From: a phage | NCBI GenBank assembly: GCA_021683455.1 | Contig: GCA_021683455.1_3051.1 | DNA: 64,000 nt | Strand: one strand, 5' to 3' | Shown: piece after piece, positions 1,475 to 57,483 of the stretch | Layout of the letters: each line of letters starts with the position of its first letter | How positions within the stretch are numbered: the stretch's first letter is position 1 | The notes under the pieces: generated by a model | What the model was told of the DNA's origin: nothing | What the model saw: only the letters and a program-made list of their open reading frames with translations | Database searches by the model: none | Translations under genes and position numbers: made by a program

Positions 1475-2125
1475 TTATATATTGTTAATTTGATTTAGAA
1501 TTCTTTTTGCTTGAGTATGACTTACGCCAATATGCTTAGCATATTTAGATAATTCACCACGCTTAGAAAAATCATATAATTTAGAAATTTCTATTCTTCT
1601 TTTTCTTTCATCCGCAGAAACTTTTGCTTCGTTTGCTTTTGCTATTTTACGTTTAGCTTCTTGAGAATGAGTTTTACCAGCAAAGCCGTTCTTCATTAAT
1701 CCATTTGAAGACCATCCTTTTAATTTTCCGTTAGAATGTGCCTTTTTAACACCCAATGAAATTAATTCGCGTTGCTGATCTGTCATAGGATAATTATTTA
1801 TATGATCCCATCCACCTTCACCTCCAAGTTTTAAATTATACACATCTGGTCTATTTAAAAACTCTTCTGTGACAATATTTTTCTCGGCTTCAAGCATAGA
1901 TTCTTTATCGTCAAAATACTCTAATATTTCTTTAGAAAAATTTTCTATACCATATTTATCTTGGGCTCTTTTTAATAATTTACCAGAACCCATATATCCA
2001 TCATCTAAATTTTCGGTAGAATGCACACCAATATAAATTTTATTATTAATTTTATTTGTTATTTTATAAAGATAAAAATGCATATCAGTCCCTAATAAAG
2101 AACTGAGCGTCTCACGACGAGTCAT
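1475..2125 (-). mobile_element. segB: GIY-YIG homing endonuclease SegB, inserted inside the tRNA cluster (216 aa)
   Basis: N-terminal GIY-YIG module (FYLYKITNKINNKIYIGVHST..GYMGSG); sits between the two tRNA subclusters as T4 segB does. Confidence 0.8.
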
Positions 2126-9503: not shown

Positions 9504-10032
9504 TATACTTCCAATGAGCGCTGATTTAGGAGAATCCATGGAAGGTTCTTCTATCGACGTCACCTTTACCGCTCAATTAGAAACAGGTGAAACGTTAGTA
9601 TCTATAAATATAACTAGTTACGAAGAAACTCCTGGGGTTTTAGTAGAAGAAAATCGCTTATACGGAACATATGAATCTGTGTTTGGATTTGGAAATGACG
9701 CGTTGAAATATCGTTTAGGTGATGAATTTAAAACTGCTGCTTCATGGGAAGAACTTCCTACTGATTCTGACACTCAGTTGTATTTGTGGAAAGCTCCTCA
9801 GAATCTCCAGAAGACATTCACTTACGAAGTAACATTAATATATGACTACCAAGAACAAAGTGAATCTGGAGGTTCTGGCAGTAATTCTAGGTCATCTTCT
9901 GATACTACTGAACCAACAGATCCTCCTGCTCCAGTAAGAAAAACTCTAGTTAAAAATTATACTAAAACTATAGTTGGAAATTGGAGTCGTTGGGCTAATA
10001 AATTAAGAAGCTATGTGTATGAGAGGCCATAG
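9478..10032 (+). CDS. 5.1: gp5.1-like baseplate-associated hypothetical protein
   Basis: ORF between 5 and 5.4; track start at 9475 is TTG, ATG at 9478; overlaps the 3' end of gene 5. Confidence 0.6.
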   Translation: MDRGLTLANILPMSADLGESMEGSSIDVTFTAQLETGETLVSINITSYEETPGVLVEENRLYGTYESVFGFGNDALKYRLGDEFKTAASWEELPTDSDTQLYLWKAPQNLQKTFTYEVTLIYDYQEQSESGGSGSNSRSSSDTTEPTDPPAPVRKTLVKNYTKTIVGNWSRWANKLRSYVYERP

Positions 10033-10326
10033 ATGTCAGGATTAAGTTATGATAAATGTGTTACTGCTGGTCATGAAGCATGGCCTCCAACAGTTGTGAA
10101 TGCTACACAAAGTAAAGTATTCACTGGAGGAATTGCTGTTCTAATAGCAGGCGATCCAATTACAGAACATACAGAAATCAAAAAGCCATATGAAACACAT
10201 GGCGGAGTGACACAACCTAGAACTTCTAAGGTATATGTCACAGGAAAGAAAGCTGTTCAAATGGCTGATTCAATATCATGTGGTGATACTGTGGCTCAGG
10301 CATCATCTAAAGTATTCATTAAATAG
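10033..10326 (+). CDS. 5.4: gp5.4, PAAR-repeat spike tip protein (97 aa)
   Basis: 97 aa as T4 gp5.4; position between 5 and 6. Confidence 0.75.
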
Positions 10327-29740: not shown

Positions 29741-30385
29741 TTGATTATGGGGCTTCGGCCCCTATTCTCGAGGAAACAAGTGATTATTTCTAAGTTTGTT
29801 ACAATAAAACCAAGAAATCATTCAAAAATGTGGTCGACAATTCTGGGATATAAAGTATCATATCATGATACAGTATCTGTTCCAATAGAATTAATGCCAA
29901 AGAATAGTAATAAAATAGTTGACGCTAAATGTGATTTGTGTGGTACTAAATTTAGTAGAAGCATTCAACTTTTAAATAGAACACCCACACATGCGTGTAG
30001 AAAATGTAGCATTAAACAAGTTGCTATTAAAAATTCGGAAGTTCAATCTGGAATAAGCAGACCATGGCAAAGAGGTGATAAACATCCTCGATGGACTGGC
30101 AAAAGAAAAGAGTTTGCATTATATGCTAGTAGAGTTCATTCTATAACTAAGTCAGCTAAAATAAGAAAAATCTGGTCAAAATGGCCAAATGCTGATAAAA
30201 TAGGAGTGTGTGGCGTAGAAGGTGCTTACCAACTCGATCATAAAGTATCTATCAAATATGGATTTGATAATTTAATTCCGCCGGAAATTATAGCAAGCGT
30301 AAAAAATTTAGAAATAATCACTTGGGAATCTAACCGAGAAAAGTCAAAAAGAAATAGCGTAGATCTTTGGGATTTACTAGAATGA
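29741..30385 (+). mobile_element. Free-standing HNH homing endonuclease inserted between genes 18 and 19
   Basis: N-terminal Cys-rich motif (CDLCGTKF..CRKC); C-terminal HNH-like motif (QLDHKVSIKYGF..NLEIITWESNREK); track ORF start spans the terminator hairpin, so the real start is probably near 29780 (GTG with GAGG SD) or 29828 (ATG). Confidence 0.7.
29749..29762 (+). terminator. Stable UUCG-tetraloop hairpin after gene 18 (attenuator or RNA stability element)
   Basis: GGGGC-TTCG-GCCCC perfect stem-loop just after the gene 18 stop; weak T-run. Confidence 0.45.
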
Positions 30386-36365: not shown

Positions 36366-36380
36366 TCTTTGACGATTTAA

Positions 36381-36399
36381 GGGACCTTCGGGTCCCTTT
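36381..36399 (+). terminator. Intrinsic terminator after gene 23
   Basis: gggacc-TTCG-ggtccc hairpin followed by a T-run. Confidence 0.6.
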
Positions 36400-36413
36400 A
36401 GTTGTTTTTATGG

Positions 36414-36421
36414 TATAAATA
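36414..36421 (+). promoter_or_regulatory. Late promoter TATAAATA for gene 24
   Basis: TATAAATA about 28 nt upstream of the gene 24 ATG. Confidence 0.6.
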
Positions 36422-36448
36422 AATCATATAAACTGAAAGGAAAGCGCA

Positions 36449-40771: not shown

Positions 40772-41452
40772 TTATTTTAATGTTACGAAAGAAGAATTGC
40801 GTGTTTCACGAATTAAAACTGATCCGTCGCGATTAATGTAATAAATTAAGCTAAACAAAGTTTGGTGTGCTGACGCGTGTTCAAAACTAGTTGGATGAGA
40901 TTTCCAATCAGGAGTTTCAGCGATCCATTGATAAATCCACCAAGGAACCGTACAGAATCCTGGATTTTTCCCCAATAATTGAAGATTCGGGCTAAAGTTT
41001 TCCGGAAGAGTAAATACAGACGGCTTTTCAGATTCAATAATCTCAGCTACAGCTTGTTCAAACTTTTCTTCAACAAAAGGAGTGTCTTCAATCAAAACGT
41101 CAGTATTTTCAGGAATTTTATCCGTTTCTACCACTTCAATTTTAATATCAGATTTAACTGGAGAATCAATCAGAAGTGCTGCTTCTGGATTAACTTCTTC
41201 ATCGTCATATTTTAATCCCTCTGCAGCATCAGCAGCATCAATTAAGTCTTTAATAGATAACCCATCAGTCTCTGGCATAGGTTCACTAGCGAGCTTCTGG
41301 AGGGCTTCTTCAATATCAACAACGATATTATCAAAAGATTTATTCTTTTTGACCTTTATACCAAACTGTTCAGCGTATTCAGCTAATTTAGCTTTAGCTT
41401 CTTTATTATCATCAAGAGCCTTCAGCTCTGCAATATAATCTTTATCTATCAT
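40772..41452 (-). CDS. inh: Inh (hoc.1), inhibitor of prohead protease gp21 (226 aa)
   Basis: Position between hoc and segE/uvsW; size consistent with T4 Inh. Confidence 0.7.
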   Translation of the reverse strand: MIDKDYIAELKALDDNKEAKAKLAEYAEQFGIKVKKNKSFDNIVVDIEEALQKLASEPMPETDGLSIKDLIDAADAAEGLKYDDEEVNPEAALLIDSPVKSDIKIEVVETDKIPENTDVLIEDTPFVEEKFEQAVAEIIESEKPSVFTLPENFSPNLQLLGKNPGFCTVPWWIYQWIAETPDWKSHPTSFEHASAHQTLFSLIYYINRDGSVLIRETRNSSFVTLK

Positions 41453-41501
41453 AATATTTCCTCAGTATAAATATAGATATATTTATTACTCGGAAAATAG
41501 T

Positions 41502-42119
41502 ATGTACCACTTTGTATATGAAACAACAAATCTAATAAATGGTAAAAAGTATATAGGAAAACACTCTACTGATGACTTGAATGATGGTTACCTTGGTTCC
41601 GGTAAGGCAATTCAGCAGGCTATAAAGAAATATGGTGAAAACAATTTCTCTAGAACAATACTAAAAGAGTTTAAAACTTCTGAAGAAGCGTACATGTATG
41701 AAGAAGAAATTATAACTCCTGAACTAATAAAAAGCAAAAATTATTATAATATGAAACCTGGTGGAATTGGTGGAATTGTTATGACTACAGAGGTTATAAC
41801 AAAGATGAAAGAATCTTCCGCTAAAAGATTTGAAAACTCACCAGGCACGGTATTAGGTAAAACTTGTTACACTAATGGAACTAAAAATATTTTTATTAAA
41901 CCTGGAGAACTTGTTCCAGAAGGATTTGTAAAAGGGATGGTTCATCCTAATAGAAAGTCCAGAAAAGGATGTAAAGTCAAACCGACTACCACAGGAACTT
42001 TTTGGGTCAATAATGGCGCAATAAATAAATTAATACAACCAGACGGTATTATTCCCGACGGATTTATTAAAGGTCGTCTCATGAAAAGAGATTCTAAAGG
42101 CAAATTTAGTAAGGCATAA
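41502..42119 (+). mobile_element. segE: GIY-YIG homing endonuclease SegE (205 aa)
   Basis: GIY-YIG module (HFVYETTNLINGKKYIGKHS..GYLGSG); location between inh and uvsW as T4 segE. Confidence 0.8.
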
Positions 42120-42121
42120 TT

Positions 42122-43630
42122 ATGGATATTAAAGTACATTTTCACGACTTCAGTCATGTACGCATCGATTGTGAAGAGAGCACGTTCCACGAATTAAGAG
42201 ATTTCTTTTCGTTTGAGGCCGATGGATATAGATTTAACCCTCGCTTCAGATATGGCAACTGGGATGGACGAATCCGTCTTTTAGATTATAATCGCCTTCT
42301 TCCATTCGGCTTAGTCGGGCAAATTAAAAAGTTCTGTGATAACTTTGGCTATAAAGCCTGGATTGACCCACAAATTAACGAAAAAGAAGAATTATCAAGA
42401 AAAGATTTTGATGAATGGCTTTCTAAATTAGAAATCTATTCAGGAAATAAAAGAATTGAACCACACTGGTATCAAAAAGATGCAGTGTTCGAAGGATTAG
42501 TTAATCGTCGTAGAATTCTTAATCTTCCAACATCTGCAGGTAAATCTTTAATTCAGGCTCTGCTTGCGCGATATTATTTGGAAAATTATGAAGGTAAAAT
42601 TCTTATCATTGTTCCAACAACTGCTCTAACAACTCAGATGGCTGATGATTTCGTTGACTATCGTTTATTCAGTCATGCAATGATAAAGAAAATCGGTGGT
42701 GGAGCATCAAAAGATGATAAATATAAAAATGATGCACCAGTCGTTGTTGGTACATGGCAAACTGTAGTAAAACAACCAAAAGAATGGTTCTCACAGTTTG
42801 GAATGATGATGAATGATGAATGTCATCTTGCTACAGGAAAAAGTATTTCATCTATCATATCAGGTTTAAATAACTGTATGTTCAAATTTGGTCTATCTGG
42901 TTCATTACGTGATGGCAAAGCCAATATCATGCAGTATGTTGGAATGTTTGGCGAAATATTTAAGCCAGTAACGACTTCTAAGTTAATGGAAGATGGACAA
43001 GTAACTGAGCTAAAAATTAATAGTATTTTTCTTCGTTATCCTGATGAGTTCACTACTAAATTAAAGGGAAAAACTTACCAAGAAGAAATAAAAATTATTA
43101 CGGGGCTTAGTAAAAGAAATAAATGGATCGCTAAATTAGCTATTAAGCTTGCGCAAAAAGATGAAAACGCTTTTGTCATGTTTAAACATGTATCGCACGG
43201 TAAAGCTATTTTCGATTTAATTAAAAATGAATACGATAAAGTTTATTACGTATCAGGGGAAGTTGATACCGAAACCCGCAATATAATGAAAACCTTAGCT
43301 GAAAATGGTAAAGGAATAATTATAGTAGCTAGTTATGGTGTATTTTCTACTGGTATTTCAGTTAAAAATCTGCATCACGTTGTTTTAGCGCACGGTGTTA
43401 AATCAAAAATCATTGTATTACAAACAATCGGTCGTGTATTACGTAAGCATGGTTCTAAGACAATAGCAACTGTCTGGGACCTCATAGATGACGCGGGCGT
43501 AGTTTCTAAATCAAAAACATCTTCTAAAAAATACTCGCATTTAAACTATCTTTTAAAACATGGACTTGATCGTATTCAGCGTTATGCTGATGAAAAGTTT
43601 AATTATGTGATGAAAGAGGTTAAACTTTGA
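42122..43630 (+). CDS. uvsW: UvsW, DNA/RNA helicase (branch migration, 502 aa)
   Basis: Walker A TSAGKSL and DECH box (MNDECH); size as T4 UvsW. Confidence 0.9.
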   Translation: MDIKVHFHDFSHVRIDCEESTFHELRDFFSFEADGYRFNPRFRYGNWDGRIRLLDYNRLLPFGLVGQIKKFCDNFGYKAWIDPQINEKEELSRKDFDEWLSKLEIYSGNKRIEPHWYQKDAVFEGLVNRRRILNLPTSAGKSLIQALLARYYLENYEGKILIIVPTTALTTQMADDFVDYRLFSHAMIKKIGGGASKDDKYKNDAPVVVGTWQTVVKQPKEWFSQFGMMMNDECHLATGKSISSIISGLNNCMFKFGLSGSLRDGKANIMQYVGMFGEIFKPVTTSKLMEDGQVTELKINSIFLRYPDEFTTKLKGKTYQEEIKIITGLSKRNKWIAKLAIKLAQKDENAFVMFKHVSHGKAIFDLIKNEYDKVYYVSGEVDTETRNIMKTLAENGKGIIIVASYGVFSTGISVKNLHHVVLAHGVKSKIIVLQTIGRVLRKHGSKTIATVWDLIDDAGVVSKSKTSSKKYSHLNYLLKHGLDRIQRYADEKFNYVMKEVKL

Positions 43631-44319
43631 ATTATAAATTAATATATGATAATTTAATTAATAGAGCCCAGAATCGGGCTCGCCTTAATGGATACACTGA
43701 AACACATCATATAATTCCTAGATGTATGGGTGGTACAAATGATAAGTGTAATTTAGTAGAACTAACGGCTGAAGAACATTTTATAGCCCATAAACTTTTA
43801 GCTAAAATTCATCCAAACCATTACGGTATAATTAAAGCTGTTATATGTATGGGGATGAATTCAAATACTCATGAAAGACATGTTAATAAATCTTACGCAT
43901 GGGAACGTCGTAAAATGGCAGAACTTCAATCCGGCGAAGGTAATCCATTTTACGGAAAACACCATACGGAAGAACATAAACAATATATGTCAAAACTCAT
44001 GAAAAGTCGTCCAATTACATGGGGAAATAAAATTAGTAAAACTAAAAGAATGAACCCAACGAAATGGACTGAAGAAGCTAAAAGATTACATTCAATCAAT
44101 CAATCGGGTAAAAATAACGGCATGTATGGAAGGAAACATTCTGCTAAATCTATTCAGAAAATTAAAGATAACATGCCAGATAATTCAGGAGCTAATAACC
44201 CAGCTGCTAAACCTATAGAAGTAAATGGTGTTAAATATAAATGTATGAAAGATGCTTCTAAAGCTACTGGATTATCAATGTACAAACTAAGAATACTTAG
44301 AAAAACAGTTAATTTATAA
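43627..44319 (+). mobile_element. Free-standing HNH homing endonuclease with NUMOD-like repeats, inserted after uvsW (230 aa)
   Basis: HNH motif ETHHIIPRCMGGTNDKCNLVELTAEEH; repeats NPFYGKHHTEEHK and NGMYGRKHSAKS; TTG start with AAGAGG SD overlapping the uvsW stop. Confidence 0.75.
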
Positions 44320-44332
44320 GGGCTTCGGCCCT

Positions 44333-44578
44333 TTGGAGAAAAAGATGTTACTAGAATTTAAACAATTTCTTTATGAAGCTTCTATTGATGAATTTATGGG
44401 TAAAATTGCCTCTTGTCAAACATTAGAAGGTTTAGAAGAACTTGAAGCTTATTATAAGAAAAGAGTCAAAGAAACTGAATTAAAAGATACTGATGACATC
44501 TCTGTGAGAGATGCTTTGGCAGGAAAAAGAGCTGAATTAGAAGATTCAGACGATGATGAAGTAGAAGAAAGCTTTTAA
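44333..44578 (+). CDS. uvsW.1: UvsW.1-like small acidic protein (81 aa)
   Basis: Small acidic ORF downstream of uvsW; position matches T4 uvsW.1. Confidence 0.55.
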   Translation: MEKKMLLEFKQFLYEASIDEFMGKIASCQTLEGLEELEAYYKKRVKETELKDTDDISVRDALAGKRAELEDSDDDEVEESF

Positions 44579-44633
44579 ATTAAAAAAGGCCCAACCGAAA
44601 AGGAAGGGCCAAAACTATAGACTAAAGGTCACA

Positions 44634-44801
44634 CTATAGCAAAAGTTGTGTTTCATTTAATTGTTCTTCCGAACTTTCTGAAACTGGTAGTTCTTTAATG
44701 TAATTATAGCAAGGCCCAGGATGTACAGGACCTTTGTCTGTTTCAACAACCAATGCAGAATCGATTGGAGTTTTACAGACAACACAAATCTTATCTGACA
44801 T
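44634..44801 (-). CDS. Small ORF (55 aa) with three Cys, uvsY.-1 position; below the track's length cut-off
   Basis: ATG preceded by GAGGAG SD; reads MSDKICVVCKTP.. to TAG; in operon position upstream of uvsY. Confidence 0.4.
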   Translation of the reverse strand: MSDKICVVCKTPIDSALVVETDKGPVHPGPCYNYIKELPVSESSEEQLNETQLLL

Positions 44802-44924
44802 GATTGTCTCCTCTGAATTATATATCTATTTATAACCCCATCTTAAAGCGCATTTCTTGTACACGCTTTAAACATGCTTCCATTTCTGCTAAAAGTCTAA
44901 ATACTTCTTTATAATTTGTCATAT

Positions 44925-45152
44925 TTACCCCATATCTCTCATATGCATATCAATGCCCATATCTTTAGAATAAAAATATTCATCAAGATATCCGGCAAAT
45001 TTTCCTTTAATATAAAGGACATCTTCACCACACGGGTGGTCGGCCAGGATACGAATATCCTGACGCTTAAGATTATGCTTTTTCATTAAGAATTGAATTT
45101 CCGTTTCAAATTCTTCTTCATAATTAAAAGCATCATCAATGCTATATCTCAT
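44925..45152 (-). CDS. Hypothetical protein (75 aa), uvsY.-2 position
   Basis: ORF abutting the uvsY start. Confidence 0.55.
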   Translation of the reverse strand: MRYSIDDAFNYEEEFETEIQFLMKKHNLKRQDIRILADHPCGEDVLYIKGKFAGYLDEYFYSKDMGIDMHMRDMG

Positions 45153-45565
45153 TATTTTCCAGCCTCAAATGCTCGCATGTCTTGAATATGCTTAATAGCA
45201 AATCCACGTGATTTAATAGCATCAAGAGCTCCGCTACAGAAATCCAATAAAATCCCCCAATATTGTAACGAGGTATCAACCTTTAAAACATCCTTATCAG
45301 CTGATAGAACTGTTTTCATTTCTGATTTCTCGTAACGATCCATACTAAATTCATCACCATCTCCTCGTCCCGAGTAGTAATCTAATTTAGCTTTAAGAGC
45401 AACTTTTTTCTGTGCTTCAATTCTAAGCATTTCCTTTTTAATACTTGAATGCTTATTAAGCCATTTACTATATAACATCACATTATTAGCTGCTTCATAC
45501 TGTAATTTAGTCGAATCTATAAACACATCTTTCTTCAATTCTTCTTGAAGATCTTCTAATCTCAT
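45152..45565 (-). CDS. uvsY: UvsY, recombination mediator protein (137 aa)
   Basis: 137 aa as T4 UvsY; begins MRLEDLQEELKKDV; synteny. Confidence 0.9.
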   Translation of the reverse strand: MRLEDLQEELKKDVFIDSTKLQYEAANNVMLYSKWLNKHSSIKKEMLRIEAQKKVALKAKLDYYSGRGDGDEFSMDRYEKSEMKTVLSADKDVLKVDTSLQYWGILLDFCSGALDAIKSRGFAIKHIQDMRAFEAGK

Positions 45566-53325: not shown

Positions 53326-55383
53326 CTACATTTTGAACTTTTTAGACATTCCGTTGATGTTAACCAAAGAAGCTAAGATTTGAGAAACTTCGCTTTCCTC
53401 TTCTTTTGATTCTTCTACAAGGAATTGATTAAATCTAGCCATTGGACGAACTTCTCCGGTTTCCATCAAATGGTCACCATCATATACCGATTCCTCTAAT
53501 TGTTCAGAAGGAGGAACAATCGTGCCTTCAATTAGATACTTATTATAAGCGGTTTCTTTCATCATGTACGTACTTACTTTATTAATCTTCAGTAAAATTC
53601 CACGTGGTAGAATAACTTCAGCTTCTGATGGAAATCCTGATAAATGACCTGGAACGATAACTTTGATTCGCTCAGCTCCTTTAATTACCATACCCACGCT
53701 AGTTTCAGCATCTTCATTAGCATATGTAGAATGACTACCCATATGCATCAAATCTTCTGCATCAACAGAACCTTCTCCTTCGCCAGAAAATACTGCGCCG
53801 GAATCATCTAGAGCCATATAGTTTTTACCATGCTCACCGAAGATATTTGGTTTAAGCGATGTGGATACGAAGTTCTTGAAATAGAACATTTTATTTTCAA
53901 TGTTATGACGCAAAGTTTTAAAGGTAACTTCTTGTCCACGGTAAAGTGTAGTTCCTGGAGGAAGAACTGAACCTTTAGCGAATGCAGAATCAAGCGTCTC
54001 AATATGTTTAATAGCTCGTTCCATATATTCTTCACGGGTAGAATCTGGTTTACCTAAAAGGAATGAGTTCATTTCAACATATGAATCTGCACAATAATCT
54101 TCAATTACATCAGATTCAGCCTGAGTTAATCCTTTTGGAGTTACTTCAGTACTTGCATATTCATATGCCTGAGCGGCAGATTCATCAATTAATTTATAAA
54201 TTCCATTCATTACAAATTGAATAATAGCTGTCTTTTCATCTGGTGTAGCTTTAGAACCTTTAACTAAATCATTGATAATTTTCTTAATAACATCAAAACT
54301 ATTAGAAATATTAATGTCAGCAAGATCGCTTAAAATTTTATCAGTTTTATAATCAAAGAATTCTTTATTCTTTAAATATTCTTGAGAACCTTGATATGTT
54401 ATATCGCTCTGCAACTTGATAGATGGATCACGTAAACGTGCATGGGCTAATGCAATATGATTTCGGAAACTTTCTAGTTCATAATCGTTAGATTTAAAAC
54501 GAGAAGCACTTCTCATACCACCGATAGCTCCTTTGCTAAAGTTTGAACCAATCTGGATAACCCCGGAGTTCATTGGTCCTTCTGCTTTATACACCGGAAC
54601 TTTAGATTCAAACTCTTGATATTTCTTAGCAGCGAAGCTATCGCCTTGAAGCGAAGCATCGACAGTAGAATATTGAGCTTGTGCTGCTAATCGACGACTA
54701 ATTTTAGTTTTCTGAATAACAGCTTGATCCGTACGCTTATCATTTTCTAAAGCAATAGAAGCAGCAACTGCGACAGCTTTAGGAACAGCATTACCTGTTT
54801 TAACATCTACATAAACATCACCGACCTTCGATTCAACTTTTGTGAATAGCTCTGTTGAAATAGGAGGTACACCTGGAATGTCTTCTAAATTGGCATTTTT
54901 ACGGTAAACCATAATATATGCATATTTCTTATCATAGTCCCAGATTTCCTTTAAAAGAACATATCGACCTGCTCCTTTAGTACGTACTAAGCGGTCAGCA
55001 ATAACTTGCATTTGACGAGCTGCGCCATTTGTTTTACTTTTTAGTACGCGGAATAGGCATGCATCAATTTTATACTGTTTCATTGTTTGAAGAGCAGTAT
55101 CAAAAACAGCATTAATGACGCCAATTGGATTTCCACCCAAGTTTTTAAGCTTAACTAACGATAATTTCTCGTTGACACCTATCATTACGATATGCATCAT
55201 TTTGTCGCCTGGCTTAACGTTTTTATTCGTATCACCACCAGAGGTGTATGTACAAAATCTAAATCCAGGAAGCACGCTTTCTTCACCGGCTTGAATAGCA
55301 AAAATTTGAGGTATTTTATGCTTAGGATTTAAGTTAACAACCGGCGCCGAAGCGCCGTCAAATAATTCTGTAATAAGTTCCAT
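53326..55383 (-). CDS. alt: Alt-family mono-ADP-ribosyltransferase, paralog A (685 aa)
   Basis: R-S-E catalytic signature (LYRGQ, FVSTSL, EAEVILPRG); N-terminus MELITELFD shared with the upstream paralog; T4 Alt is 682 aa. Confidence 0.85.
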   Translation of the reverse strand: MELITELFDGASAPVVNLNPKHKIPQIFAIQAGEESVLPGFRFCTYTSGGDTNKNVKPGDKMMHIVMIGVNEKLSLVKLKNLGGNPIGVINAVFDTALQTMKQYKIDACLFRVLKSKTNGAARQMQVIADRLVRTKGAGRYVLLKEIWDYDKKYAYIMVYRKNANLEDIPGVPPISTELFTKVESKVGDVYVDVKTGNAVPKAVAVAASIALENDKRTDQAVIQKTKISRRLAAQAQYSTVDASLQGDSFAAKKYQEFESKVPVYKAEGPMNSGVIQIGSNFSKGAIGGMRSASRFKSNDYELESFRNHIALAHARLRDPSIKLQSDITYQGSQEYLKNKEFFDYKTDKILSDLADINISNSFDVIKKIINDLVKGSKATPDEKTAIIQFVMNGIYKLIDESAAQAYEYASTEVTPKGLTQAESDVIEDYCADSYVEMNSFLLGKPDSTREEYMERAIKHIETLDSAFAKGSVLPPGTTLYRGQEVTFKTLRHNIENKMFYFKNFVSTSLKPNIFGEHGKNYMALDDSGAVFSGEGEGSVDAEDLMHMGSHSTYANEDAETSVGMVIKGAERIKVIVPGHLSGFPSEAEVILPRGILLKINKVSTYMMKETAYNKYLIEGTIVPPSEQLEESVYDGDHLMETGEVRPMARFNQFLVEESKEEESEVSQILASLVNINGMSKKFKM

Positions 55384-55386
55384 GAT

Positions 55387-57483
55387 TTATCCTTGAACGA
55401 ACTTGTAAGGCATGTTTGCAATATCTATGCAAGACGCAATAATTCCAAGAGATGATTCTACTTTTTGTTTAACATTTGATGAAACAAATGATGCAAAGTC
55501 AACTCTGTCTTCTATTTCAATATCACCTGTCATTGCAACTACTTCACCAGTTTCCATTAGACGGTCTCCGTCATAGATTATCGATTCGGTGAGCTCTTCC
55601 GTGGTCATAACTTCAGCTTGAATGAGTTTTGTATTATTAGATGTTGTTCCGTCATTATTAGAAGCATCAGTTATTTTATTAACTTTGACCATCAATCCAC
55701 GCGGTAGAATAACTTCAGCTTCTGTTGCTATTCCGAGACTTCCTGGATATACAACATTAACTTTATGAGCTCCATCAATTGCCCATCCTATTTGAACTTT
55801 AACGTATTCAGGATTTTCTTTATACGCTCTTATTTCGTTTGGATTAATAGTTATTCCTTCTTCATTTTTATCAACTGTTAATTCATTGCGAGCTTCTGGT
55901 TCTAAAAGACCAATACCAGCATGTGTGATTCCAAAACGTCCAAAAATGATAGGAGTTAAAGAAGTAGATACAAAATTTCTGAAGTAGAACACTTTATTTT
56001 TAACTAACGCTTCATATATAGGAGCAGTCATACTTTGAGCACGATAAACTGTAATGCCTTCTGGTATACGGTCACCATTTTCAAAAGCTGAATCTAAGTT
56101 ATTTATAGCAGATTCAATTTCTTTTTCATTCATTACATCATATCGTTCTGGATTGTAACGACCTAAAAGAAGATTATTGATGTCAGTATATCCTGAACCG
56201 CAATATTCTCTAATGCCACGCTTTTGTGATGGAGTATATTTAGAACCATCGCGTGCAATAGTAATATCAATCATTGGACCAGCACCAATTCCAGAAAAAC
56301 TGTAAATCATTCGTTTGAGGAATTTAGTTTTTGCTGCGTTCCAGGAATTTTTAGTTATTTCTTCCCAGACTTCATCTGATTGTCCTTTACGATTTTTATT
56401 ATGATTAGCAAGCCATTTATCTTTATAATCTTCAAAGAATTGATTTACAGCTGCTGCGTATTTCTCTAAACATTTTATTGAAGTAGTTGGTTCATTTTTA
56501 ATTGCATTAAAAATTACTTCTTTAATTTTTTCTGAAACTTCACCGACTTGACTCATTGGAAAGAATTTATAATCATAGTGAAGTTCATCTGCCGTTCCTT
56601 CAGCAATAATTTTTGCTGCCTTTGTTTTAGAAGCTAATGAATTAATTCCAATTTTCATTTCTTCTGCTTCGGGAATTAAAGGTGCAGTAGCTGGTTTATT
56701 AAAATTGGCTGCTGTAGATTCATACTTCTGGAATAATTCACTTTCAAATCTAGAAGATTCCAATGACTGACTTTGTGCAATTGCTCTACGGGAAATTTTA
56801 ACTTTAACGATTACAGCTTGGTCAGAACGTTTATCATTTTCTTGTGCAATAGATGCTGCAATTGCCTCATTTTTAGTTACTTGAGCTCCAGTATCTTTAT
56901 TGATATAAACATCACCGACCTTCGATTCAACTTTAGTAAAGAGCTCTGTACTAATTTCCGGAACTCCTGGAATGTCTTCTAGTGATACATTTTTGCGATG
57001 TATAAGAATATATGCATACTTTTTATCGTAATCCCAGAGTTCCTTAAGAAGGACGTATCTGCCACCTGAACGACTACGGATAAGTCTATCAGCAATAAGT
57101 TGAATTTGTCGAGCTTGACCGGCGGTTTTAGACTTAAGAATACGAAGCATGCAGGCATCAATTTTATATTGACGCATTGTTTGCATTGCAACAGTAAAAA
57201 CTGAATTGATATAATTAATCGGGCTTGGACCAAGACCTTTTAATTTAGCAATTGAACCTTTAGCAGTTAATGTAAAAGGAACAATATGCATCATTTTATC
57301 GCCCATCTTTAAATCGCGATTAGTATCACCTCCAGATGTATATGTACATAAACGAAAGCCTGGCTGTTCAATTGCATCATCAACATGAACTGAAAAAATT
57401 TGCGGTATTTTCTTCTTTGGATTTAAGTTTGTAATCGGAAGAGTAGTATCTTCGTCAAATAATTCTGTAATAAGTTCCATCAT
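55387..57483 (-). CDS. alt: Alt-family mono-ADP-ribosyltransferase, paralog B (698 aa)
   Basis: Same N-terminal (residues ~1..230) and C-terminal ART modules (VYRAQ, FVSTSL, EAEVILPRG) as paralog A; central ~250 residues diverged. Confidence 0.85.
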   Translation of the reverse strand: MMELITELFDEDTTLPITNLNPKKKIPQIFSVHVDDAIEQPGFRLCTYTSGGDTNRDLKMGDKMMHIVPFTLTAKGSIAKLKGLGPSPINYINSVFTVAMQTMRQYKIDACMLRILKSKTAGQARQIQLIADRLIRSRSGGRYVLLKELWDYDKKYAYILIHRKNVSLEDIPGVPEISTELFTKVESKVGDVYINKDTGAQVTKNEAIAASIAQENDKRSDQAVIVKVKISRRAIAQSQSLESSRFESELFQKYESTAANFNKPATAPLIPEAEEMKIGINSLASKTKAAKIIAEGTADELHYDYKFFPMSQVGEVSEKIKEVIFNAIKNEPTTSIKCLEKYAAAVNQFFEDYKDKWLANHNKNRKGQSDEVWEEITKNSWNAAKTKFLKRMIYSFSGIGAGPMIDITIARDGSKYTPSQKRGIREYCGSGYTDINNLLLGRYNPERYDVMNEKEIESAINNLDSAFENGDRIPEGITVYRAQSMTAPIYEALVKNKVFYFRNFVSTSLTPIIFGRFGITHAGIGLLEPEARNELTVDKNEEGITINPNEIRAYKENPEYVKVQIGWAIDGAHKVNVVYPGSLGIATEAEVILPRGLMVKVNKITDASNNDGTTSNNTKLIQAEVMTTEELTESIIYDGDRLMETGEVVAMTGDIEIEDRVDFASFVSSNVKQKVESSLGIIASCIDIANMPYKFVQG

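Follow-up and report, generated by a model that had tools for sequence, protein, structure and literature searches.

Free-standing endonuclease genes shape which markers win in T-even co-infection and create recombination boundaries in phage genomes. Among them, MobE is a free-standing HNH homing endonuclease encoded between nrdA and nrdB of phage T4 (Wilson & Edgell 2009, PMC2790892); its gene overlaps the nrdA stop codon (PMC2988022), lacks a promoter (PMC2988022, PMC2790892) and contains an early hairpin that was shown experimentally to be an internal terminator (PMC2790892). SegE, another T4 endonuclease, has uvsW as its target gene (PMC2988022 Table 1), and a 2010 review of T4 mobile elements counted 15 endonuclease genes, none of them at the junction between uvsW and uvsW.1 (PMC2988022). 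Here we describe a gene at that junction in a 64,000-nt stretch of phage DNA (GenBank assembly GCA_021683455.1, contig GCA_021683455.1_3051.1), the whole of which is called the window below. Taken as a whole, the locus is best explained, at a probability of about 0.8 that we base on sequence comparison, as a functional free-standing homing endonuclease of the MobE lineage, with an N-terminal HNH domain, two NUMOD3 motifs and an I-TevI-like helix-turn-helix. This kind of gene is known and is annotated in existing records, and the element itself is an uncharacterised member of the MobE family; newly described are the replacement of the uvsW tail, a flank divergence confined to one side, fidelity to one site across multiple genera and a hairpin early in the open reading frame (ORF).

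The element resembles T4 mobE in the NUMOD3 motifs of its product, in a GC-rich hairpin at an equal early position of the ORF and in its sporadic distribution. It differs in its site and presumed target, the 3′ end of uvsW, whereas MobE sits between nrdA and nrdB and nicks nrdB. The C-terminal half of the protein also diverges from MobE and ends in the I-TevI-like helix-turn-helix; the start codon is TTG instead of ATG; the stem of the hairpin is unrelated to that of mobE and lacks a U-tract; and the flank divergence linked to the homing endonuclease gene (HEG) lies upstream of it, whereas the MobE target lies downstream. T4 segE offers a second comparison, as it too flanks uvsW, is sporadic and is linked to a divergent uvsW end, but it encodes a GIY-YIG rather than an HNH enzyme, lies between inh and uvsW (at the opposite end of uvsW), starts with ATG and segregates independently. 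Like MobE, the endonuclease gene is present in the classical laboratory phage T6; unlike MobE, it is absent from T4. With this element, the T-even repertoire would gain a sixth Mob-type HNH endonuclease, whose predicted target encodes a helicase of late recombination and of the replication switch; no general concept is changed by it.

The product matches PHROG 655 ('homing endonuclease', E 4e-60), and its best characterised relative is T4 MobE (BLASTP, 42% identity over 181 aa, E 6e-34), a homology that spans both the nuclease domain and the NUMOD3 region. Its first 63 aa are ~75% identical to MobE, as counted from the printed alignment, and nucleotides 2-188 of the ORF are 72% identical to mobE at the DNA level. 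When the protein was aligned with 46 database homologues, H28, P31, C33, G36, N42, E50, H51 and H55 proved invariant across the 47 sequences and H27 nearly so; PF01844 (HNH) was matched by 33 of the 47 (E up to 0.01), and T4 MobE passes it with 24.6 bits. A profile built on the family matches the HNH segments of McrA (E 0.003) and Cas8-HNH. In an AlphaFold2 (AF2) model with a predicted local distance difference test score (pLDDT) of 87.9 overall and at least 94 over residues 1-70, strands at 25-28 and 43-46 and a helix at 48-61 (pLDDT ~96) form the two strands and helix expected of HNH, so that the His-(His)...Asn...His motif is carried on a β-hairpin and helix as in the HNH ββα-metal superfamily. 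The first-pass annotation, made from the letters alone, had read an HNH motif here, and the PHROG, MobE and family-profile matches, together with the PF01844 matches of its homologues, bear it out.

The same annotation had proposed two NUMOD-like repeats and a search for HNH_3 and NUMOD profiles. The repeats hold up, with Pfam NUMOD3 (PF07460) matching in two stretches (E 7.6e-14) and the helix-turn-helix following C-terminally; the HNH_3 profile found no match in the protein by Pfam scan. The family profile also matches the I-TevI DNA-binding domain (E 3.7e-9), a match that is weak in Pfam for the protein alone, and six of the 47 aligned homologues match I-HmuI_NUMOD-like; I-HmuI itself was not matched in profile and fold comparisons. 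Fold searches with the whole model were noisy and ranked the I-TevI DNA-binding domain first. The order HNH, NUMOD3, NUMOD3, helix-turn-helix therefore points to a modular homing endonuclease of the Mob type. NUMOD3 and a C-terminal helix-turn-helix are building blocks shared with enzymes of the I-TevI and I-HmuI type, but no intron is present here, and the catalytic domain is HNH where that of I-TevI is GIY-YIG.

The 230-aa ORF with a TTG start overlapping the uvsW stop was confirmed as first annotated (Table 1). Its TTG (43627-43629) precedes the uvsW TGA (43628-43630) by one base, giving a TTGA overlap at the end of ...ATG AAA GAG GTT AAA CTT TGA, and the Shine-Dalgarno sequence that had been claimed is present as GAGG at 43616-43619, 7 nt 5′ of the TTG. 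Because an in-frame TAA lies two codons 5′ of the TTG and the first in-frame ATG is codon 34 — within the HNH motif and 3′ of the invariant Y3, Y23 and H28 and the nearly invariant H27 — only the TTG yields a complete HNH domain with the conserved N-terminus. In both DNA and BLASTP alignments, the initiator Met (ATG) of T4 MobE aligns with this TTG. The start codon overlaps the uvsW TGA by 4 nt in all seven orthologues (7/7), and the codon itself varies: TTG in Tequatrovirus, Dhakavirus and Karamvirus, GTG in Proteus phage PM2, and ATG in Klebsiella phage Roth16 and Morganella phage Rgz1. This fixed geometry with a drifting start codon lends good comparative support to TTG use and to termination-reinitiation coupling, both of which we infer from sequence. 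ATG, GTG and TTG at one coupled start form a natural series for the study of low-expression control.

Junction alignments with related phages revealed a sporadic insertion. The first-pass annotation had placed the ORF between uvsW and its neighbor uvsW.1, given there as adjacent in T4; that adjacency was confirmed in T4 and other relatives, and the insert does sit where T4 has uvsW beside uvsW.1, but inside uvsW, short of its stop and with a replacement tail. Homology to T4 ends after ATGAAA (43615) and restarts at AAAACAGTTAATTTATAA (44302), and the insert of 689 bp therefore lies within uvsW, in codon 498/499, five codons before the stop. In HEG-less phages, uvsW ends with ATGAAA-ACAGTTAATTTATAA (KTVNL*, the asterisk marking the stop) and is followed by the GGGCTTCGGCCC hairpin. 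The left end of the insert brings GAGGTTAAACTTTGA (EVKL*), by which uvsW is kept at 502 aa and the GAGG and the TTGA overlap are created. Because the endonuclease ORF now borrows the native tail, with its stop and hairpin, for its own 3′ end, the hairpin noted after the ORF in the first-pass annotation is indeed there, as ancestral backbone rather than a feature of the insert.

A possible origin of the left end comes from a HEG-less locus (L064), judged from its sequence to be of the Proteus-phage type, which natively has AGAGAGGTTAAATTATGA, with the uvsW stop overlapping the uvsW.1 ATG. It matches the endonuclease initiation region of the window at 15 of 18 positions, and the endonuclease start region appears to be a captured copy of this uvsW-to-uvsW.1 coupling signal in which ATG has become TTG. 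This layout recurs in other carriers, in each of them with the tail of its own host. In Dhakavirus ESCO10 and UP19, uvsW ends in KEVQI* and the endonuclease ORF in ...MKQVDL*, the native Dhakavirus tail; in PM2 both end in KEVKL*, the tail being duplicated at the two ends; and in Klebsiella phages uvsW ends in KTVNL* and the endonuclease ORF in ...NL*. Comparisons at this junction can be misled by the T4 RefSeq entry NC_000866, which reads uvsW and uvsW.1 as one coding sequence (CDS) of 587 aa (locus L003, 4160-4200). This fusion results from a known sequencing error, the entry having AATTTAATAAGCTTCGGCCC where other phages, and according to the literature resequenced T4, have AATTTATAAGGGCTTCGGCCC.

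Upstream of the insert, the 3′ end of uvsW differs between carriers and non-carriers. Five HEG+ Tequatrovirus sequences and three without the HEG differ in uvsW at 38 fixed positions, every one of them in the tract of gene positions 1374-1509, which is ~28% diverged from HEG-less, T4-type alleles in every carrier examined. Identity between HEG+ and HEG-less copies is 0.78-0.83 within the tract and at least 0.92 upstream of gene position 1300, 5′ of which the two groups draw on one polymorphism pool. The tract is contiguous with the endonuclease gene in 49 of 49 HEG+ records, and no high-identity tract without the gene was found among the matches listed. On the other side, the right flank (44302-44834: native tail, uvsW.1 and beyond) is 98.3% identical to T4. 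Dhakavirus shows a drop of uvsW identity to 0.68-0.84 from about nt 1300, and Klebsiella phages Roth16 and Roth01 are mostly 96-100% identical, with 68-88% over the last 150 nt of uvsW and 99% in uvsW.1; divergence on the left side only, with a right flank 98-99% identical, was thus seen in three genera. No donor of the 136-bp tract exceeding 75% identity was found among the sequences compared. The tract is the candidate region for polymorphisms of target and immunity: by analogy with SegE, we infer a target within the final 140-200 bp of HEG-less uvsW, or across the insertion point, and an immunity function of the tract.

One patch of uvsW, KSAN(T/A)KKKYV, is altered in six of seven HEG+ genomes and was considered as the target site through its KSAN-to-KSKT change. 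It was rejected as proof of that site, as the HEG-less Proteus-type loci L055, L061 and L064 natively read KSKN(S/T) and the HEG+ Klebsiella phage Roth16 keeps SANA.

Across 751 phage records matching the 2-kb region, the endonuclease gene is covered in 49 (~6.5%), among them T6, Yersinia phage PST, G2540-3, HY03, ACG-C40 and pSe_SNUABM_01. Carrier records mostly annotate a 'homing endonuclease' with identical coordinates and TTG start; in those of G2540-3, G28 and G8 the label is 'group I intron endonuclease'. T4 and 12 other compared loci lack the gene, as do T2-type phages and most relatives. The gene is therefore not an ATG-started one common to T4 and all its relatives, and the first-pass annotation of a free-standing HNH and NUMOD homing endonuclease stood up, in its core, to all the tests made. 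Orthologues occupy the uvsW/uvsW.1 junction in Dhakavirus, Klebsiella phages, Bragavirus, Gualtarvirus and Karamvirus. Among Tequatrovirus copies, the ratio of non-synonymous to synonymous substitution rates (dN/dS) is 0.05-0.07, with 20-22 synonymous and 5-6 non-synonymous differences; between genera it is 0.09-0.36, and the ORF is full length in ten of ten aligned copies (five from Tequatrovirus and five orthologues). Low dN/dS and intact ORFs together favor a functional protein over a relic. The window itself is a Tequatrovirus mosaic identical to no record, the best match reaching 96-97% over 25 kb.

Three further loci carry variants of this arrangement. Karamvirus EnC07 (L022, 2156-2950) encodes, at the uvsW/uvsW.1 junction, a 264-aa protein with a TTG start in a TTGA overlap with the stop; it has the same HNH N-domain and an unrelated C-terminal half in which Pfam NUMOD3 was not found. 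Compared with the window, EnC07 is a case of domain shuffling at one insertion site. In Proteus phage PM2 (L020, 1-2153), an extra 876-nt ORF of unknown function divides uvsW into two CDSs annotated 'DNA helicase', in addition to the HNH gene at the uvsW 3′ end. A more distant T4-like sequence (L050, 2053-2220; IMG/VR contig 650627005_000001) has the same HNH N-terminal domain (44% over 56 aa) in an ORF that starts at an ATG overlapping the uvsW TAA (TAATG); uvsW.1 was not detected downstream of this ORF by tblastn.

The endonuclease gene looks promoterless, like mobE, because the sole exact upstream match to the T4 late-promoter consensus, TATAAATA, precedes segE (Table 1); no exact match occurs on the + strand from 41474 to 44578. 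Sigma-70 promoter and terminator scans gave fewer matches than shuffles and nothing relevant on the + strand. Within the ORF, a GC-rich hairpin is found at nt 21-75 in nine of nine T4-like phage members, T4 mobE included (z-scores of -2.3 to -5.1), and the nine stem sequences and the amino acids they encode are unrelated. As a hallmark of the whole HNH family the hairpin was discarded: across 74 non-redundant metagenomic relatives, structure in this region does not exceed that of the remaining ORF. The Shine-Dalgarno sequence and the TTG are partly sequestered by an AU-rich stem of 11 bp (43594-43604 with 43618-43628), to which we gave little weight because orthologues conserve it only in part and part of it occurs in HEG-less T4 too.

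A homing cycle compatible with these features can be proposed. The endonuclease gene, apparently lacking a promoter of its own, would share a transcript with uvsW that probably begins at the late promoter at 41466. Ribosomes finishing uvsW at its TGA would re-initiate at the overlapping TTG, with help from the GAGG created by the substitute tail, and so yield low amounts of the enzyme. The hairpin at 43664-43681 may attenuate the transcripts, as in T4 mobE. In a mixed infection, the enzyme would nick or cut the 3′ end of uvsW in a HEG-less competitor, and recombinational repair would then copy the endonuclease gene, together with the divergent and presumably cleavage-resistant uvsW 3′ tract, into the recipient.

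More tentatively, the mobile unit could be a composite cassette that joins a recoded uvsW 3′ end of ~136 bp, the substitute 5-codon tail and the endonuclease gene; taken jointly with the four proposals that follow, we rate this idea at somewhat short of even odds. Its left end may be the captured ancestral coupling signal between the uvsW stop and the uvsW.1 start, GAGGTTAAAYTNTGA, in which case the endonuclease would hijack the translation-initiation site of uvsW.1. Its right end may fuse in frame to the native uvsW tail of the recipient genus and so restore the uvsW.1 signals. The recoded tract may be the immunity determinant against self-cleavage, and the early-ORF hairpin, specific to the family and with a stem sequence free to vary, may be a built-in attenuator. 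If true, the combination would enable a single endonuclease lineage to settle at one junction in at least six T4-like genera or groups. A parallel is offered by T4 MobA and the gene 60 bypass cassette, reportedly described by Bonocora and colleagues (PNAS, 2011) as an HNH gene travelling with an altered piece of host gene. The two have in common the concept of a composite cassette, a preserved host-gene function and, presumably, protection from self-cleavage; they differ in that the window carries a recoded 136-bp 3′ end and a substitute 5-codon tail with no translational bypass, and its protective role is putative.

Several observations weigh against parts of this interpretation. For the protein alone, PF01844 scores 16.2 bits against a gathering score of 21.4 (E 0.012). 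The searched literature yielded no study of an endonuclease at uvsW/uvsW.1 and no data on activity, cleavage or inheritance. The Shine-Dalgarno sequence is not kept in all orthologues. No U-tract follows the hairpin at 43664-43681, which is not called as a + strand terminator and whose role is therefore uncertain, and early-ORF hairpins of this kind are confined to the nine T4-like phage members rather than extending to the wider HNH family. The divergent tract may be hitch-hiked donor DNA instead of an immunity determinant; HEG-less Proteus-type phages natively carry a similar KSKN patch; and four HEG+/HEG- pairs from several genera share no common difference that would mark the target site.

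The sub-threshold HNH score would also suit a decaying or defunct remnant, like I-TevIII in T4, with an ORF that is inactive or unexpressed and a weak TTG, in place of ATG, as a symptom of decay; at least one record, UFV-AREG1, indeed has a truncated 146-aa product in UniRef. We nevertheless consider a remnant unlikely, given that every one of the ten aligned copies is full length, that the catalytic H/N/H are invariant across 47 homologues, that synonymous differences outnumber non-synonymous ones at the low dN/dS given above, and that non-ATG starts recur in independent lineages at one coupled position, a pattern resembling regulation more than decay. Strong purifying selection would equally be expected of a domesticated nuclease that serves the phage rather than being mainly selfish, for example through exclusion or degradation of DNA from competitors or the host, or through a part in recombination alongside UvsW and UvsW.1. 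The tight coupling to a recombination helicase operon would fit such a role, as would the spread of flanking sequences among related phages by homing endonucleases (PMC2988022). Yet a gene carried by ~6.5% of related genomes, and missing from T4, T2-type phages and most relatives, is dispensable; EnC07, with the same HNH domain joined to an unrelated C-terminal half at the same site, displays the shuffling typical of selfish genes; and both the architecture of the junction and the divergence of a single flank bear the signature of homing. Domestication thus seems quite improbable.

An endonuclease belonging to an intron or intein, as several GenBank records label it, is the least plausible of the alternatives and can hardly be entertained. 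It has in its favor the 'group I intron endonuclease' labels of the three records named above and the NUMOD3 and I-TevI-like modules, which are common to intron-encoded enzymes. However, an Rfam scan of 41300-45300 at E up to 1 returned no group I or group II intron and only one chance miRNA match, so that these labels are wrong; uvsW and uvsW.1 are separate ORFs in HEG-less phages; and the ORF, with coding sequence to its left and the native uvsW tail to its right, does not lie within a self-splicing intron interrupting a host gene. What was found is a free-standing and apparently promoterless gene, set against conserved genes and sporadic in close relatives, as expected of a homing endonuclease of the MobE type.

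Table 1. Coordinates, in the window, of the endonuclease gene, its parts and the neighboring or related features
Feature	Coordinates	Strand	Remarks
Endonuclease gene, MobE-family HNH, free-standing (predicted)	43627..44319	+	230 aa; TTG start
HNH nuclease domain, aa 1-62	43627..43812	+	Invariant columns, likeness to the MobE N-terminus, AF2 model
NUMOD3 motif 1, aa 94-122	43906..43992	+	PF07460; best stretch 94-122
NUMOD3-like motif 2, about aa 157-181	44095..44169	+	Approximate bounds; second Pfam stretch; aligns to I-TevI DNA-binding domain from residue 39 onward
C-terminal I-TevI-like DNA-binding helix-turn-helix module, aa 193-228	44203..44310	+	
GC-rich hairpin in the 5′ coding region	43664..43681	+	GAGCCC-agaatc-GGGCTC; positional counterpart of the T4 mobE internal terminator
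uvsW, helicase gene invaded at its 3′ end	42122..43630	+	502 aa; Pfam UvsW_N (E 8e-44), ResIII, DEAD, Helicase_C
HEG-linked divergent 3′ tract of uvsW	43495..43630	+	136 bp; gene positions 1374-1509
Substitute uvsW tail ATGAAAGAGGTTAAACTTTGA (MKEVKL*)	43610..43630	+	Holds GAGG, the TTG start and the uvsW TGA
Native T4-type uvsW tail AAAACAGTTAATTTATAA (KTVNL*)	44302..44319	+	Right border of the insert; last five codons and stop of the endonuclease ORF (...RKTVNL*)
Ancestral hairpin GGGCTTCGGCCC, GGGC-UUCG-GCCC	44320..44331	+	Directly after the uvsW stop in HEG-less phages; not part of the insert
uvsW.1, downstream neighbor displaced by the insert	44345..44578	+	77 aa; ATG at 44345; GGAG at 44335-38; Pfam UvsW-1 (E 5.8e-29)
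T4 late-promoter consensus TATAAATA	41466..41473	+	Pattern search; candidate promoter of a segE-uvsW-HEG-uvsW.1 transcript
segE, GIY-YIG	41502-42119		5′ neighbor of uvsW
segB-like gene, GIY-YIG	1475-2125	-	

The product of the invaded helicase gene has 97.8% aa identity to T4 UvsW. Its 5′ end is divergent as well: over the first 200 nt of uvsW (42122-42320), phages with segE (the window, T4 and T6) and those without it (L004-L007) are 72-87% identical. The two elements, segE and the HNH gene, segregate independently of each other and occur in all four combinations. uvsW would thereby be bracketed by two selfish nucleases, each tied to its own divergent end of the gene.

The first-pass annotation had counted four free-standing endonucleases in the 64 kb and called the uvsW-linked gene the second of the HNH type. 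The segB-like and segE products stand as GIY-YIG endonucleases; the ORF inserted between genes 18 and 19 failed to score as one, and since it is unconfirmed as a nuclease, neither the count of four nor the word 'second' could be verified. That ORF (214 aa, 29741-30385, + strand) occupies a 644-bp insert that is absent from T4, and its TTG start lies directly against the stop of gene 18. Its matches are to phrog_5104 (unknown function, E 4e-82) and, weakly, to a homing-endonuclease PHROG (E 1.4e-4), with no significant Pfam nuclease domain. The segB-like gene is chimeric, being 83% identical to T4 SegB over residues 19-117 only and divergent in the remainder. Relative to T4, segC is missing together with 5.3 (10029-10033), and segD is missing as well, the gap between genes 23 and 24 measuring 61 bp (36376-36437).

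Downstream of the uvsW region, an insert of ~100 bp (44834-44936, minus strand) lies between uvsY.-2 and uvsY.-1; it is present in G2540-3, absent from T4 and T6, and encodes a 30-aa ORF (MTNYKEVFRLLAEMEACLKRVQEMRFKMGL). Dhakavirus ESCO10 and UP19 have annotated CDSs of 99 nt in the corresponding position, a likeness of length and position alone. Finally, the region of alt and alt.-1 to alt.-3 (53345-56674) is rearranged or divergent relative to T4, and its blastn map has gaps of ~1.5 kb and 1 kb and one segment of 75% identity.

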